The notes below the pieces were generated by a model that did no database searches, had not been told where the DNA came from, and saw only the letters and a list, made by a program, of their open reading frames with translations. From positions 6,564 through 70,563 of the forward strand of contig JAZNBS010000050.1 in the NCBI GenBank assembly GCA_045587185.1: a stretch of 64,000 nt of DNA. Direction: 5' to 3'. Below are positions 48,655 to 57,256 of the stretch, piece after piece (position 1 is the stretch's first letter; every line of letters begins with the position of its first letter). Source of the stretch: Acutalibacteraceae bacterium (lineage in GTDB: Bacteria > Bacillota > Clostridia > Oscillospirales > Acutalibacteraceae). The position numbers and the translations under genes were made by a program.

Positions 48655-49071
48655 TTACTTGTCAAAAGACGGGTTGATTTCGTAGAAATTCTTTTCGTTG
48701 AGTTTATCGGTAAGGTTGCGTAAGCCTTCACCAAAGCGTTGATAGTGAACAACTTCGCGTTGACGTAAGAACCTTATGACATCTCTGACGTCGGGGTCGT
48801 CTGCACAGTAGCGGAGAATATTGTCATAGGTTGTTCTTGCCTTTTGCTCGGCTGCCAATGATTCATGCAAATCGGTTATAGGATCTCCCTTTGATGCAAG
48901 TGCCATTGTACTGTATGGTACGCCTGAAGCCGCTTGGGGATAAATTCCGTTGGTGTGATCAACAAAATATGCGTCAAAACCTGACTTGTTAATGTCATCT
49001 TCCGAGAGGTTGCGGGTTAATTGATAAACGATTGTACCTACCATTTCAAGGTGAGCAAGTTCCTCAGTACC
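48655..49071 (-). pseudogene. cotJC: cotJC 3' portion (Mn-catalase-family spore coat protein), separated from its 5' portion by the inserted element
   Basis: The reading frame upstream of Met 49044 continues as GTEELAHLEM back to 49071. This matches the central E-x-x-H metal motif and C-terminal half of CotJC. Confidence 0.85.
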
Positions 49072-49128
49072 TATTGAAGAATAAAATTGTTTATGTTATA
49101 ATACCACCATCAAGGAGGTAAAAAAGTT

Positions 49129-49452
49129 ATGAGGAAAAACTATTTAATTGACTATTACCGCAACAATATGACACAGGAACAACTGGAAAATGCCCACACC
49201 TTACTTTATGATGATAACAGGTTATTATCTTATATCTGTTATTCATATAATTGCTATGAACTATTACATAGCAAGGGGCATTTATCATTGATAACCAATC
49301 CAGATGCTTTGTTTTCTACACCACAAGCAGAGCAACAATTCATTATGGAATTAAAAAACTACATAAGAGATGTTATTGGTATCAAGAGAGAGGATGTTCA
49401 AGATGGCAACACTAAAAGTAATAGAGCCGACCAAAACAACACTAAAAACTAA
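49129..49452 (+). CDS. Hypothetical 107-aa protein overlapping the recombinase start
   Basis: AAGGAGG RBS, 9 nt before the ATG. No motif recognised. Confidence 0.45.
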   Translation: MRKNYLIDYYRNNMTQEQLENAHTLLYDDNRLLSYICYSYNCYELLHSKGHLSLITNPDALFSTPQAEQQFIMELKNYIRDVIGIKREDVQDGNTKSNRADQNNTKN

Positions 49453-51235: not shown

Positions 51236-51333
51236 AATATTCAGTTTTCTGTCATATCTTTTTTGAAAAAAGGTATGGCTATTTTGACAGAATTATGCTA
51301 TAATCATTGTTAATGTGTTTGGAGGTGAAAATA

Positions 51334-52383
51334 ATGCAAGAGTTACTAATGTCTTTGTTACAATTAGTTTTACTATTGCTTAACCCAGTTTTTTTAATTC
51401 CTGCAATAATAATTATTGTTGTGCTTGTAAAGAAAGACAAGGAATATAAAAACGGTGCATATTATCAAATCACCAAACACCCCTATTTTTCAGTAAAACA
51501 CAATACTGGTAGATATGGCGAATATCTCACATACAAATATCTCAAACAGTTTGAAACCAACGGAGCGAAATTTCTTTTTAATATCTACATACCCAAAGAG
51601 AACGGCGAAACCACCGAAATTGATGTGTTAATGATATGTAAAAAAGGTTTATTTGTTTTTGAGAGCAAAAATTATAGTGGTTGGATTTTCGGTAGTGAAA
51701 ATCAAAAGAATTGGTATCAAACATTACCTGCTGGTAGAGGTCGGAGCCATAAAGAGCATTTTTACAATCCAATAATGCAAAACCGCTCACACATAAAACA
51801 CCTTAAAGCATTTTTAGGCGAACAAGTACCTATGCGGTCAATCATTGTTTTTTCCGATAGATGCACATTAAAAAGTGTTCAAATCCGTAGCAATGATATA
51901 AGCGTTATAAATCGTTATAGCGTTGCACCAGTTGTATCTGGTATCTGTAACCAAATTCCCAATGATTTACTTACTGATAACGATATTACAGAGATTTATA
52001 ACAAATTATATCCCTACACACAAGTTGATGAACTTGCCAAAATGCAACACATAGCAAATATCCATAACAATTTGAAACCGCAAACTGCTCAACCAGTTAA
52101 TGAAACACCTGCTCAAGTTATTCCACAAAACAAGACCGAAATAGTTACAGAGCAACCAGATGCGGTTGCTATTGATACAACAATCGCAACAGAAGAAACA
52201 CCGATTATTGAAACTACCGAACCAGCAACAACAGAAACAAGAGAGCAACAAACATTAAAATGTCCTAAGTGTAACGGTGATTTAATTTTAAGAACTGCAA
52301 CCAGAGGAGCAAATGCAGGTAATCAATTTTATGGTTGCTCAAATTATCCTAAATGTAAATACATACAAAACATAACAAATTAA
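51334..52383 (+). CDS. NERD-domain protein with an N-terminal TM and a C-terminal topoisomerase-type C4 zinc finger
   Basis: EIDVLMICKKGLFVFESKNYSG is the NERD core. CPKCNGDLILR...FYGCSNYPKCKY is a zf-C4-Topoisom-like finger. Confidence 0.75.
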   Translation: MQELLMSLLQLVLLLLNPVFLIPAIIIIVVLVKKDKEYKNGAYYQITKHPYFSVKHNTGRYGEYLTYKYLKQFETNGAKFLFNIYIPKENGETTEIDVLMICKKGLFVFESKNYSGWIFGSENQKNWYQTLPAGRGRSHKEHFYNPIMQNRSHIKHLKAFLGEQVPMRSIIVFSDRCTLKSVQIRSNDISVINRYSVAPVVSGICNQIPNDLLTDNDITEIYNKLYPYTQVDELAKMQHIANIHNNLKPQTAQPVNETPAQVIPQNKTEIVTEQPDAVAIDTTIATEETPIIETTEPATTETREQQTLKCPKCNGDLILRTATRGANAGNQFYGCSNYPKCKYIQNITN

Positions 52384-52420
52384 AAAATCCTGTGAGCAAA
52401 TTTGCTCATAGGATTTTTTT
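52383..52420. terminator. Bidirectional terminator between the NERD gene and mob
   Basis: aatcctgtgagcaaa/tttgctcataggatt flanked by A- and T-runs. Confidence 0.75.
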
Positions 52421-53471
52421 AATGGTCCAAAATATCATCAATCGTTCGGTGTTGCTCTTGGATGCTCTCTTGTAAATCCGTGAGATATTTTAAGAGTGTG
52501 ATGTTTTTGCCTTCGTGTTGAATTACAACATTGCCGGCTAATTTAAGTAAACTCTCATATGTATTACATTTATCAATGAGTTCAAGATAACGTTCTGGAA
52601 CGAGTTCGCCGTGTTCTTTAACCATTGCTTTAATGTCAGCGAGATTTTGTTCAGCAGTTTTAAGCTCATCCAGTTTTAGAGAATATTCAGCGTCAACCTG
52701 TGCTTTCCATTCTCTAATAGATTGATGTTTACGAAATTTAGGTATCTTTTCGCCGTACTTTTCACAGTATGCCTTTACCTGCTCATAGGTAATTGAACCA
52801 TCCTTATTGCCAAAACCTTTTCTTTTTGCACGTTGACACAAAGCAAGATAATCGTTATATCTGGAATGACCTCGTTTCAAATCAAACTCTTTCATTGCCT
52901 CGGCATACCTATCTTGTAGTTTACTCAAATCGCCACGGCCACCTAAAATATCTTTTGCCATAAACAATAAATTTCTGCCGATTGTTGCATACACAAAATG
53001 GATATGTGGAGTGTCCTCATCCATATGCAGTTCAAGTCTTACGGGCACACAACCCTTTGAATTAAATTCCTTTTCAAGAAATTTCATATTTGCTCGGACC
53101 CAGTTATCAACATCAACCTTTCCTGCCATATCTGGCGAAAAGGTTAGTACACCCTCAAATGCTTGTGCTGCTCTTTTCTGCATATGTCTTTTTGCTTTTT
53201 CATCACCTGTCCGTGTTGCATTGAATTTGTCAATTTCGGAATTATAAAATTCTCTTGCCTTATCTATTTTGGAAGCAATTTTTTTGAAGGGCCAAGGGTT
53301 GTGTAGTATGCTCCGATTTTCACTAGATAATTCTGGATGTGAAATATCAGCGGCTTGTTCGTGCTTATCCAAATGTCGTAAAGATTGCGACAGAGTTTTT
53401 GCACCACGACCGTGTGTTTGTAATTTCACTATTCTAAAAATGCAAAACTCTTTTGACTTCTCTTTTGCCAT
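52419..53471 (-). CDS. MobV-family (Pre/Mob) plasmid mobilization relaxase
   Basis: LELHMDEDTPHIHFV is the HxDE..PHxH motif III of MobV relaxases. The N-terminal region is relaxase-like and the C-terminus is a coiled coil. Confidence 0.85.
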   Translation of the reverse strand: MAKEKSKEFCIFRIVKLQTHGRGAKTLSQSLRHLDKHEQAADISHPELSSENRSILHNPWPFKKIASKIDKAREFYNSEIDKFNATRTGDEKAKRHMQKRAAQAFEGVLTFSPDMAGKVDVDNWVRANMKFLEKEFNSKGCVPVRLELHMDEDTPHIHFVYATIGRNLLFMAKDILGGRGDLSKLQDRYAEAMKEFDLKRGHSRYNDYLALCQRAKRKGFGNKDGSITYEQVKAYCEKYGEKIPKFRKHQSIREWKAQVDAEYSLKLDELKTAEQNLADIKAMVKEHGELVPERYLELIDKCNTYESLLKLAGNVVIQHEGKNITLLKYLTDLQESIQEQHRTIDDILDH

Positions 53472-53679: not shown

Positions 53680-53850
53680 CAAACAAGCAAACTTGTTTGA
53701 TGGGCCAAGGTGCTACCTTGGAACCGTTTAAGGATTGCATCCTTAAAAATCCTGCCACCGAAAAAAGCGTATACGCTTTTTTATACGGCAAAAAATACCG
53801 TATGCGGTAAGGTGAAAAATACCTTACCCACCGCCTTAATTTTTGCCGTA
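53680..53850. other. Hairpin-dense non-coding region upstream of mob: candidate oriT (or single-strand origin)
   Basis: Inverted repeats at 53680-53699, 53705-53721, 53729-53745, 53761-53782, 53796-53809 and 53806-53828. Distal inverted pair tacggcaaaaa/tttttgccgta. Confidence 0.4.
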
Positions 53851-53973
53851 TTGTATGAACTATATTTTTGTGTTTGAGAACAAAAAATATAATTCATACT
53901 TTGTGTAAGACAATAACGGCTGATGCCTTATATTTTGCCTTACACATACGGATGAAAGGAGTTGTTTTTTATT

Positions 53974-54498
53974 ATGGATAAAAAAGATATACGTGTTTAT
54001 CTGGATGCTGACTTTTGCGACCACTTAAAAAGCATTGCAAAAGATAAAGGTATTTCTGTAAATTCGCTTGTTAGCGAATTAGTGAAAAAGAAATATCCTA
54101 TGCAGAGCAAAGATATTTCCATCAAACTGAATGATGATAAAATTGTTTTACTTAAAAAGGCGGCACAAAAGAGAAATACAACAATTAGTGAATTGTTGAT
54201 TTCTCTTGTTGATGATTTCTTGTTGTCGGTGAAACAACCCGCACTTGATGAAATTCCGCTTGATGCCGAAACTGGTGAAACTGCATCAACCATTGCCTGT
54301 GAAAGTGAGAATGTGCAACCTGTTGATGTTGTAAAACCAACCGCAACGGATGATGACCGCAAACAGAAAGAACGCCGACTTGCTGATGTTAATTACAAAC
54401 TCAAAAGAGCATACAATGGTGATAAACTACCAAAAGATGAATTTCAGCAGTTAAGAGATGAACAAGCATCTTTACGTGCTGAACTCGGTCATAACTAA
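53974..54498 (+). CDS. Hypothetical protein with two ribbon-helix-helix (CopG-like) modules
   Basis: IRVYLDADFCDHLKSIAKDKGISVNSLVSELV and ISIKLNDDKIVLLKKAAQKRNTTISELLISLV resemble tandem RHH units. Confidence 0.5.
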   Translation: MDKKDIRVYLDADFCDHLKSIAKDKGISVNSLVSELVKKKYPMQSKDISIKLNDDKIVLLKKAAQKRNTTISELLISLVDDFLLSVKQPALDEIPLDAETGETASTIACESENVQPVDVVKPTATDDDRKQKERRLADVNYKLKRAYNGDKLPKDEFQQLRDEQASLRAELGHN

Positions 54499-54796: not shown

Positions 54797-55001
54797 GAGT
54801 TTGCAATCACCGATTTTTCACATCGCATCAGCGATGCCAAAAAATATATACAACTCTTAAAGGTTAAGTTTGCAAACCCTTAAAATAACCAAAAAGAAAA
54901 AGCGAACATTCTCAAATGTTCGCCACCAGTAAAACCGCATTAAGTTAATCAGACCATTAAAAACACGAGCATCTGGAATTTATAAGCTCAAGTTTGCAAT
55001 C
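54797..55001 (+). repeat. Three dispersed copies of the (a/g)AGTTTGCAA(t/a)C motif with flanking CTTAAA: iteron-like repeats
   Basis: gagtttgcaatc at 54797-54808, aagtttgcaaac at 54866-54877 and aagtttgcaatc at 54990-55001. Copies 2 and 3 are followed by c(c/t)cttaaaata. Confidence 0.45.
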
Positions 55002-55357
55002 TCTTAAAATACACACATCCAGAATAACACACTTTAACTCATATCTTTTTTATCCGCAAAGTACGGCCACCGTAACACCTACTTTGCGGAATCCGTTATA
55101 GAAAACCTAACGGTTCCAACGTATGTTAAATTAACACTATTGAATATAAGAAGAGAGATACAAAAACGAAAAAATGCCGTAAACCCTTATAAATACAAGA
55201 GAAAACGGCATTTTCAATGGTGACAAATATGTCTTATAATAGTGACAGATTTGTCAGGGTTTAGTGCAAAAAAATGCACCAAATTAAAAACAAATCTATC
55301 ATATTTACCTTACAAATAAAAAAGACCATCAAACGATGGTCGGAAAGGGGTAATAAT

Positions 55358-55819
55358 ATGACAACTAAAATTGAAAAAGGAATTTCAATAAACACCATAA
55401 CAGGCGAAGTTTGTGATGTTTATATTGAGAAAGAGGTTAGCAGCCAAAACTTTTGGAAAATCTGGTTAGGTGATATTTTAACAGTTTTGGGTATCATTTC
55501 AAATAGTAAACAGTTAGATGTTATAATTTACATTATGGAAAATATAAGACCAAGCGACAATCTTTTTATTGGTAGTTATGAAAAAATCGCCAATGGTTCT
55601 GGTGTGTCTAAAAGAACTGTTATAAGAATAATGCAAAAACTATTTGAAACAGAATTTTTAAAAAAGGTTCAAAATGGTGTTTACGCAGTAAATGCCAAAT
55701 ATTTAGTTAAAGGCAATGAGAATAAGCGTAGAATGATTATTGACTACCAAAGCACACTTGAACCTTACAATAAGAATGATGCATCCGCAAACCTAAACGA
55801 TGATACGGATGCAGAATAA
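55358..55819 (+). CDS. RepL-like / winged-helix plasmid replication protein
   Basis: SKQLDVIIYIMENI...IANGSGVSKRTVIRIMQKL resembles the HTH core of Firmicute RepL-type initiators. AAAGGGG RBS. Confidence 0.55.
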   Translation: MTTKIEKGISINTITGEVCDVYIEKEVSSQNFWKIWLGDILTVLGIISNSKQLDVIIYIMENIRPSDNLFIGSYEKIANGSGVSKRTVIRIMQKLFETEFLKKVQNGVYAVNAKYLVKGNENKRRMIIDYQSTLEPYNKNDASANLNDDTDAE

Positions 55820-56268: not shown

Positions 56269-56461
56269 TTAGATTTTCTCCTTTCAAAAATTCAATTTTA
56301 TTTGCAAATAAACCTTTTTGTATGTCATTCCAGATAATGCAAACGATTGAGATATTCGTGCTTAAACAGATATTTGATACATTGTTTTTATTTGCTTGAT
56401 TTAATTATGTTAAATACTTTTTGAAAACGAAGAAAACTTTTTATTGATATAGGAAACAGAC

Positions 56462-56498
56462 AAAAAAGATATGCAGAAAATATCTACATATCTTTTTT
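56462..56498. terminator. Hairpin with an A-run and a T-run just inside the right end of the element
   Basis: [28 protein letters not shown], about 70 nt downstream of the truncated cotJC stub on the minus strand. Confidence 0.5.
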
Positions 56499-56570
56499 AC
56501 TGCAGACCCAGCCGAAAACTGCTTGAACGCTGATTTTGTTGCAAAAAACCGACATTTCCTATAACTTTTT

Positions 56571-56783
56571 TCAAAATGCACAATATTTTTCCTCTATACC
56601 AACATCAGTCAGAAGACCTTTGAGTTCGGCTGTTGGCATTGCATAACGTTGACTGAGGTATCTCAAACTTGCGCCTATCTCTCCATCGGGACCGCCGTAT
56701 TGCGAAATGATAAGGCTTGCAAGTTTAGGGTTTGTCTGCTTTATCTTAATGGGATATTGAAGTTTTTTCTGATATTGCCACAT
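56571..56783 (-). pseudogene. cotJC: cotJC 5' portion. CotJC-matching sequence runs to the break region 56589-56600, then a short element-encoded tail and a stop codon
   Basis: MWQYQKKLQYPIKIKQTNPKLASLIISQYGGPDGEIGASLRYLSQRY...LLTDVG matches the CotJC N-terminus. The ORF ends ...IEEKYCAF*. Confidence 0.85.
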
Positions 56784-57035
56784 TTAGTTTGCCTCCTTTT
56801 CCCAGGGCCATGGTGCTTTTATCCAGTCAAATCCGTCAGAGCCGAAATCGGAACTGAGTGTAAGTGGACCGTATTCTTCTTCGTATTCCTTGACAAGTTC
56901 CTTATATCTCAGGCGGTAAATTTCAAACTTTTTGAGTGCCTCTTTGTCACAGGGATGAGTGTCAAGAAAAAGTCCTGTTTCAAGCATAGCAAATTGCGCC
57001 GCGCGTACGGCATCAAGAAGTCTCTGCTTTTCCAT
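56784..57035 (-). CDS. cotJB: Spore coat protein CotJB
   Basis: FAMLETGLFLDTHPCDKEAL...Y...YGPLT and the C-terminal W.W...PWPWE motif. Confidence 0.9.
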   Translation of the reverse strand: MEKQRLLDAVRAAQFAMLETGLFLDTHPCDKEALKKFEIYRLRYKELVKEYEEEYGPLTLSSDFGSDGFDWIKAPWPWEKEAN

Positions 57036-57256
57036 TATTTTCTCGCCCCCGTAAATTTGCCGTAAAACGGCTTGTCAAGGTCAGGGAAAAGTGTGCCGCG
57101 TTCCAGAGCGTCATTCTCGGAATAGACTTCTCCCCATTTTTGCATTGGCACATAAGCCATGGTTAAAGGCAGGTTTTTCAGTTGTGTGTCACTGAATTTC
57201 ATCTGTTTGTCATGTCGCTCAGGCATAACAAAGCCTTTAAATTTCAAATCTGACAT
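57035..57256 (-). CDS. cotJA: Spore coat-associated protein CotJA
   Basis: LAMAYVPMQKW...Y....AL..GT.FP.L..PF pattern. Overlaps the cotJB start. Confidence 0.85.
   Translation of the reverse strand: MSDLKFKGFVMPERHDKQMKFSDTQLKNLPLTMAYVPMQKWGEVYSENDALERGTLFPDLDKPFYGKFTGARK

Follow-up and report, generated by a model that had tools for sequence, protein, structure and literature searches.

The joined ends of a mobilizable element in the spore-coat gene cotJC form a predicted serine-integrase attachment site centred on CC

Described intervening elements and the split cotJC locus

The gin element of Bacillus cereus ATCC 10987 lies within gerE and encodes the GirC recombinase together with a directionality factor of 42 aa, GirX (PMC5595907). 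The element analyzed here resembles gin in being non-phage, in interrupting the coding region of a sporulation gene, in carrying a large serine recombinase whose precise excision of the element restores (gin) or would restore (here) the interrupted gene, and in an att site whose imperfect inverted repeat is centred on a predicted dinucleotide. The two differ in that gin targets gerE and its sporulation-timed excision was shown experimentally, whereas the present element targets cotJC and combines a 107-aa partner unrelated to named families with plasmid-like Mob and Rep functions. Other intervening elements of sporulation genes are skin (SpoIVCA, in sigK) and SPbeta (SprA/SprB, in spsM) (PMC4191935, PMC5499854), and the skin element of C. 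difficile belongs to the same class (PMC5025042). In skin and SPbeta, too, a large serine recombinase excises the element from a gene expressed in the mother cell, restoring that gene. These are, however, prophages or remnants of prophages that span 14-134 kb and whose directionality factors are under sporulation control, whereas the present family is plasmid-like, spans about 5-8 kb, and had no sporulation-type promoter that we could identify. The target itself has precedents: cotJC has been reported as a recurrent insertion target (Abe et al. 2013, via bioRxiv 2021.11.22.469490), and a skin-like element occupies cotJC in Laceyella sacchari (bioRxiv 2022.02.25.481979). These earlier reports concern other taxa, and their available texts give neither att sites nor crossover positions.

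In gene content, the closest analogues are the clostridial mobilizable transposons Tn4451 and Tn4453 (~6 kb, with TnpX and a MobV relaxase; reviewed in PMC5704250), which likewise pair a large serine recombinase with a relaxase of the MobV family, carry cargo, and recombine via a circular form between att sequences identical over 2 bp. Tn4451 has low target specificity and requires no directionality factor (PMC5704250), whereas the present family is specific to a single cotJC codon and has a Rep gene and an additional conserved ORF. With the phage integrases of Bxb1, phiC31 and A118 the element shares an attP-like pseudo-palindrome of ~50 bp, a less symmetric attB and a non-palindromic, polarity-setting dinucleotide (PMC3783163), as well as a recombinase with resolvase, recombinase and zinc-ribbon domains and a coiled coil. 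It departs from these systems in being non-phage and in lacking a recognisable inward-shifted zinc-ribbon motif in attB. What we describe is a well-supported instance of a known architecture, predicted here for an undescribed element family.

The window, a 64,000-nt stretch of a contig from an Acutalibacteraceae bacterium, contains a cotJA-cotJB-cotJC spore-coat operon on the minus strand, the last gene of which is split at codon 62 by an insert of 7,529 bp sitting between the two halves (Table 1). Beyond the insert the gene starts again at TEELAHLEMVG... (48655-49069). Both halves are in frame and undecayed and, when rejoined in silico, encode a 199-aa Mn-catalase/CotJC protein (Pfam Mn_catalase, E = 8.5e-50) that is 92-94% identical to intact homologues, with identical DNA at the junction. 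These uninterrupted homologues read ...TD[VI]GTEELAHLEM... and have GG at the split position, and the empty sites represented by intact cotJC genes follow the DNA pattern ...GAYRTA-GG-YACWGARGAA..., which is the predicted attB.

Table 1. Positions in the window of the split host operon, the inserted element and its predicted attachment-site parts
Feature	Positions	Strand	Basis or remark
cotJC 3' part	48655-49071	-	Gly62 (GGT, uses CC at 49070-71), Thr63 to end, stop; translation, tblastn
attB-derived half-site at attL (TEELAH codons)	49051-49069		outward from centre TACTGAGGAACTTGCTCAC
Predicted crossover CC, attL copy	49070-49071		family core comparison
P' arm	49072-49095		TATTGAAGAATAAAATTGTTTATG; occurs once in window
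Sigma-70-like promoter, TTGAAG-17-TATAAT, extended TG	49074-49102	+	10/12 matches; putative function
Conserved 107-aa ORF	49129-49452	+	overlaps recombinase gene start; candidate directionality/accessory factor
Large serine recombinase, 595 aa	49403-51190	+	Resolvase, Recombinase and Zn-ribbon domains, coiled coil
NERD nuclease-related domain and topoisomerase-type C4 zinc ribbon (cargo)	51307-52383	+	profile matches
MobV / Mob_Pre relaxase	52419-53471	-	Mob_Pre 2.7e-13; MobV 5.9e-24
Ribbon-helix-helix (Arc/CopG-like) protein	53962-54498	+	weak matches
RepL-type plasmid replication protein	55274-55819	+	RepL 2.9e-24
Terminator-like hairpin, strong	56460-56500	-	18-pair stem then T run; -28.5 kcal/mol, z = -7.6
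cotJC 5' stub ORF	56571-56783	-	host codons 1-61 = 56601-56783; then Gly62 and IEEKYCAF-stop from P arm
P arm	56575-56598		ATGCACAATATTTTTCCTCTATA
Predicted crossover CC, attR copy	56599-56600		shared-core comparison
attB-derived half-site at attR (...LLTDV codons)	56601-56619		sequence comparison
cotJB	56784-57035	-	CotJB Pfam 6.9e-28; directly upstream of cotJC
cotJA	57035-57256	-	CotJA Pfam 3.2e-19

The recombinase gene lies next to the left junction, and its product has the domain order of a large serine recombinase: Resolvase (residues 25-171, 7.6e-27), Recombinase (198-308, 5.3e-25), a Zn_ribbon_recom match at 325-369 that falls just below the cut-off (3.5e-5; 24.5 bits against 25.3), and coiled-coil-type matches at 405-516, with the catalytic motif YCRVSTDE placing R29-V-S31 near the N-terminus. 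It matches the PHROG 95 integrase family at 5.9e-116 and shows weak similarity to CcrB and XisF. The closest solved structure is the N-terminal domain of a C. difficile conjugative-transposon recombinase (PDB 3g13, 3e-28), with weak structural-database matches to SprA (9dxh), a TnpX domain (2mhc) and phiC31 integrase. The genes for the recombinase, the small ORF, the relaxase and RepL are all intact. Pfam and PHROG profiles detected no phage structural, packaging or lysis genes in the element, and its 7.5 kb encode no T4SS or conjugative pore genes, which identifies it as a small integrative mobilizable element (IME) rather than a prophage.

Several non-coding regions of the element have a structure of their own. 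A cluster of inverted repeats (53783-53899) lies between the relaxase gene and the ribbon-helix-helix gene, upstream of the former, and forms a candidate oriT, with arms of 31 nt (53783-53813/53821-53851) and of 17 nt (53853-53869/53883-53899, 94% complementary). Upstream of repL, the non-coding stretch 54860-55011 holds two 28-nt direct repeats, 86% identical and 124 nt apart, in a region of strongly negative GC skew (-0.27), and may be a replication-origin or iteron region. The terminator-like hairpin near the right end is bracketed by a run of A and a run of T, and could terminate transcription in both directions.

Symmetry of the joined ends and the predicted crossover

A sequence-only reading of this locus had proposed that the two ends of the element, joined through a shared CC, form the palindromic attP of a serine integrase. 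On re-reading the sequence, the shared CC was confirmed at 49070-71 and 56599-600, and the end sequences given in that proposal, TATTGAAGAATAAAATTGT on the left (49072-49090) and ACAATATTTTTCCTCTATA on the right (56580-56598), are present exactly as it had written and placed them. The 19-nt arms joined through CC are complementary at 15/19 positions, as had been claimed, and at 17/24 when extended. Joins displaced by 1 to 8 bp reach 4-9/19 only. Random joins of 19-mers drawn from the same AT-rich element gave a mean of 5.1 matches (sd 2.0; P(>=15) = 1.5e-5), at least 15 matches occurred at 6 of 63,960 positions of the native window, and shuffling one arm attained 15 in 2.8e-4 of trials. The joint was set independently by the break in cotJC, and the symmetry was therefore not produced by searching; with the joint so fixed, there were never more than three candidate centres.

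The reciprocal join, the predicted attB, had been described as having little symmetry and scored 4/19. It restores the canonical ...DVG-TEELAHLEM... reading, as had also been predicted (the rejoined DNA encodes ...DVGTEELAHLEM...), and the N-terminal stub indeed carries the IEE variant, reading ...TDVG-IEEKYCAF and then a stop. Two parts of the proposal needed adjustment. The name attP suits the architecture but not in its phage sense, the element being an IME, which is a matter of naming convention only. The 40-bp palindrome stands, but conservation reaches ~24 bp in each arm and suggests a full site nearer 50 than 40 bp.

This conservation was seen across related elements. The P' arm, read outward from the centre as TATTGAAGAAtAAAATTGTttATG, is nearly invariant across 43 distinct junctions; the P arm varies more, with ATGCACAA and TCYTnnnTA kept across the family. 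Both arms of the window match the family consensus, and its P' arm, including the promoter, is identical to it. The half-site contributed by the TEELAH codons resembles the arms as well: its consensus is nACnGARGARCTnGC, in which A2, G5, A6, R7, G8, A9 and R10 (nAnnGARGAR in the inner 10 bp) are common to both arms, and the window copy matches each attP arm at 8/10 inner positions. The ...LTDV half-site resembles them weakly (6/19 in the window). In the A118 model the distal motif of attB, bound by the zinc-ribbon domain, lies ~5 bp further inward than in attP (PMC3783163); looking for an inward-shifted ATTGT motif in the attB half-sites gave no clear instance beyond a match of T..G when shifted by 4.

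The relatives comprise ~45 loci from public assemblies and MAGs of ruminant and other animal guts, with hosts labelled Acutalibacteraceae, Eubacteriales, Faecousia, Vescimonas or 'Clostridia bacterium' (Oscillospirales-type gut MAGs). Thousands of recombinase homologues exist, many of them 60-98% identical, and the recombinases of the ~45 related elements are 49-98% identical. Wherever flanks could be read, all loci but one lie inside cotJC, at the same Gly codon, with the break in ...TD[V/I]G-TEEL[A/G]H... after the glycine; this single codon is targeted in hosts down to 40-50% identity in CotJC. The constancy of the target presumably stems from its coding for the conserved DVGTEELAH motif of Mn-catalases, which includes an invariant Gly codon (GGN). 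The one exception is L053 (2349 nt; junction at ~760, reverse strand), where a GG-type element is joined to the end of an unrelated ORF reading ...VIQGADGDIYDLG-IED-stop, either an off-target integration or an assembly chimera.

Both junctions were readable in 17 elements of 4.8-8.3 kb, the one in the window included. In 8/17, attL and attR share the dinucleotide alone, CC in four of them (L002, L020, L023, L058) and GG in the other four (L013, L019, L021, L029); the remaining elements share TACC, CCTAT, TACCTAT, GGTA, TAGGTA or longer cores. Arm symmetry in the relatives is 12-17/19. In the window, the stretch identical between the junctions is TACC (49068-71 = 56597-600). The intersection of all family cores is the dinucleotide, which narrows the exchange from TACC to CC, and a crossover at CC is thus supported by the comparison of family members.

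A common backbone of recombinase and Mob_Pre relaxase is found throughout the relatives, and the cargo varies, including restriction-modification, beta-lactamase-family and NERD nuclease-related genes. Examples are an HNH endonuclease with a DNA methylase (L001 and L057, 2209-4575), a beta-lactamase-family gene accompanied by LRR proteins (L002, 2519-3502) and a PNP/UDP phosphorylase with a tyrosine recombinase (L012, 13192-14079). In L021, a Rep_OBD-helicase Rep replaces RepL. A further locus, L034 (4462-9656), has a second interruption of cotJC near residues 133-136, where an insert of ~4.7 kb encodes other serine recombinases, a 486-aa protein and a fragment of 194 aa; cotJC seems to be a hot spot that recombinases of more than one lineage have used.

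The orientation rule and competing explanations

The family occurs in cotJC in two orientations. In elements oriented as in the window, the recombinase gene has the 3' part of cotJC as its neighbour, and the sequence of the site is P-arm-CC-TATTGAAGAA...; in inverted elements its neighbour is the 5' part, and the sequence is P-arm-GG-TATTGAAGAA..., the P' arm being unchanged. Elements inserted at the same codon in opposite orientations therefore have the same arms and differ at the centre, CC versus GG. The sister clade with GG at the centre comprises L009-L017, L019, L021, L022, L026, L029, L031, L033, L035, L037, L038, L045, L047, L052 and L054. In a neighbour-joining tree, the elements with GG group as a single clade that is nested among those with CC, with a distant GG member (49% identity) falling outside it, and orientation is perfectly correlated with recombinase clade across insertions.

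Recombinase identity and host identity do not go together (Spearman rho -0.15, 300 pairs): recombinases that are 94-100% identical occur in hosts merely 48-74% identical over CotJC(1-62), opposite types are found in hosts sharing 88-95% identity (the window and L026 are one such pair), and close host relatives with an intact cotJC, i.e. an empty site, also exist. This discordance, together with the empty sites and opposite types in close hosts, argues for independent integrations and against a single ancestral insertion followed by vertical inheritance. These comparisons clearly point to a family that is transferring between hosts. The orientation of each integration obeys the dinucleotide borne by the element, which is the polarity rule shown by experiment for serine integrases, where the dinucleotide sets orientation (Ghosh, Kim and Hatfull 2003, as cited in bioRxiv 2021.11.05.467528; model in PMC3783163).

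We searched for the excised form and for copies elsewhere. A degenerate attP pattern covering the CC and GG types found no excised circle in JGI metagenome contigs, and a P'-arm pattern found 11 further copies, all integrated, plus one chance match. PLSDB gave no DNA match to the element and only recombinases <=35% identical, and IMG/VR gave no DNA match either. An exact-sequence look-up of the window's RepL and recombinase returned no other contig, and the searches yielded no matching empty site of the same strain. Three short Logan contigs were considered as circles and rejected: L001 and L057 start in cotJC at the attL junction, and L060 begins 2 nt inside the P' arm, so that the region upstream of the junction is unreadable.

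Four other accounts of the locus were weighed against a serine-integrase site with exchange at CC. The mildest departure would keep such a site and move the exchange to the AC or TA of the TACC core of the window. Any crossover within TACC gives identical products, so the window alone cannot discriminate; yet the arms are symmetric at only 9/19 and 4/19 positions about AC and TA, as opposed to 15/19 about CC, eight relatives share no more than CC or GG, and TA, being palindromic, could not set polarity, which together make a displaced exchange highly improbable. A transposon with terminal inverted repeats, CC being its 2-bp target-site duplication, would look the same once integrated, with inverted-repeat ends flanked by a 2-bp direct repeat, and the presence of both orientations at one target would suit it. 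It is nevertheless expected to insert in a random orientation at each event, whereas the observed orientation is tied to recombinase clade, and it leaves the single-codon targeting in such divergent hosts to be accounted for. Moreover, no transposase, DDE or otherwise, is encoded by the element, whose sole recombinase is the large serine recombinase. Independent integrations that obey the dinucleotide are hard to reconcile with a symmetric-end transposon or with vertical inheritance, and we regard the transposon as barely tenable.

The conservation and symmetry at the left end might belong not to a recombination site but to the promoter and operator from which the small ORF and the recombinase are expressed, as a near-consensus TTGAAG-17-TATAAT lies inside the P' arm and is invariant in the family. 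This would leave unexplained both the position of the partner arm, precisely at the opposite end of the insert and 7.5 kb distant, and the dinucleotide rule at the junctions, and it is very unlikely as a full account; the promoter and recombination roles are compatible, and the footprint of arm-bound recombinase would overlap the -35 element. Finally, the architecture may be as described while the element no longer excises, a fixed relic that has inactivated cotJC in this host. The searches recovered neither a circle nor a same-strain empty site, and several CotJC-family paralogues are common (bioRxiv 2022.02.25.481979), such that the loss of one may be tolerated. A relic is, on the other hand, at odds with the four intact element genes, with the consensus arms and the consensus-identical P' arm and promoter, with the undecayed, in-frame halves of cotJC, and with a family that is moving between hosts; we consider it unlikely. 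The serine-integrase site with a CC crossover, as first proposed, is backed by the palindrome, the adjacent recombinase, the family cores, the polarity and the empty sites. We assign a probability of about 0.88 to the whole model, in which 49051-90 and 56580-619 are attL and attR of a 7,529-bp IME inserted at Gly62 of cotJC, with a serine recombinase that crosses over at CC. The original call was correct, though the site is of a textbook kind.

Predicted reaction, regulation and significance

According to this model, excision would join the ends of the element into a pseudo-palindrome of ~40-50 bp, ATGCACAATATTTTTCCTCTATA-CC-TATTGAAGAATAAAATTGTTTATG. For integration, a recombinase dimer would bind the ~50-bp site of the circle and a second dimer would bind cotJC, after which the two sites would synapse. 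Staggered cuts of 2 bp would then be made at the CC of the element and, in cotJC, at its complement, the GG within the GGT codon, and the half-complexes would rotate by 180 degrees before religation. CC is non-palindromic and would thus alone set the orientation of insertion. The reverse reaction would regenerate an intact cotJC, with an expected circle junction of ...TTTTTCCTCTATA-CC-TATTGAAGAATAAAATTG... and an expected repaired cotJC junction of ...CTGACTGATGTT-GG-TACTGAGGAACTTGC.... The binding, cleavage and rotation steps are modelled on the known mechanism of the recombinase family, and the copy in the window is probably active, judging from its intact genes and consensus arms. We infer that excision may require a directionality factor, for which the 107-aa ORF is the candidate, and that its timing may be controlled.

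The 107-aa ORF has homologues of 104-113 aa that lie immediately upstream of the recombinase gene and overlap it, in CC and GG elements alike, wherever the upstream region could be read. Aligning 25 homologues revealed 19 invariant residues. Searches of Pfam and NCBIfam returned no family for this ORF, and its sole family match is phrog_17904, of unknown function. An AlphaFold model built with 25 sequences is all-helical and of low confidence (pLDDT 59, pTM 0.29), too low to support a fold comparison. The ORF is an obvious candidate for a directionality or accessory factor.

The sigma-70-like promoter, the only promoter type we recognised, lies inside the P' arm, points toward the small ORF and the recombinase gene, and is kept in every family member (43 junctions). 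Owing to this location, a recombinase bound to the arm should repress its own operon, and the placement suggests recombinase autoregulation. In the orientation found in the window, the recombinase operon is divergent from cotJC, and the hairpin at 56460-56500 should stop cotJ transcripts from entering the element.

The GG relatives are arranged differently: the cotJ operon runs on without a break into the genes for the small ORF and the recombinase, which lie directly downstream of cotJA-cotJB-cotJC' with only ~45 nt between, leaving no room for a terminator. Read-through from cotJ in this type could, speculatively, couple excision to sporulation. We put forward as a tentative possibility, with the balance of our judgement against it, that the family evolved a polarity switch from CC to GG, which reversed the direction of insertion at the same cotJC codon, such that excision in the GG type is driven by a mother-cell sporulation promoter and the CC type is insulated and self-regulated via the promoter in its P' arm.

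For an uncharacterised recombinase of the large serine type, the present analysis predicts a precise pair of att sites together with their crossover dinucleotide. The att variants of the ~45 relatives are a ready-made mutational series that includes a natural CC/GG polarity pair, and the sets of enzymes and sites are raw material for genome-engineering integrases. For the biology of these bacteria, one codon of the metal-binding motif of the cotJC Mn-catalase is a shared landing pad for a widespread family of tiny mobilizable elements in Clostridia of ruminant and other animal guts. By comparison with skin, SPbeta and gin, the cotJC elements raise the question of excision at the time of sporulation and, if the tentative scheme for the GG class is true, its polarity switch would turn a mobilizable plasmid into a developmentally timed gene switch.
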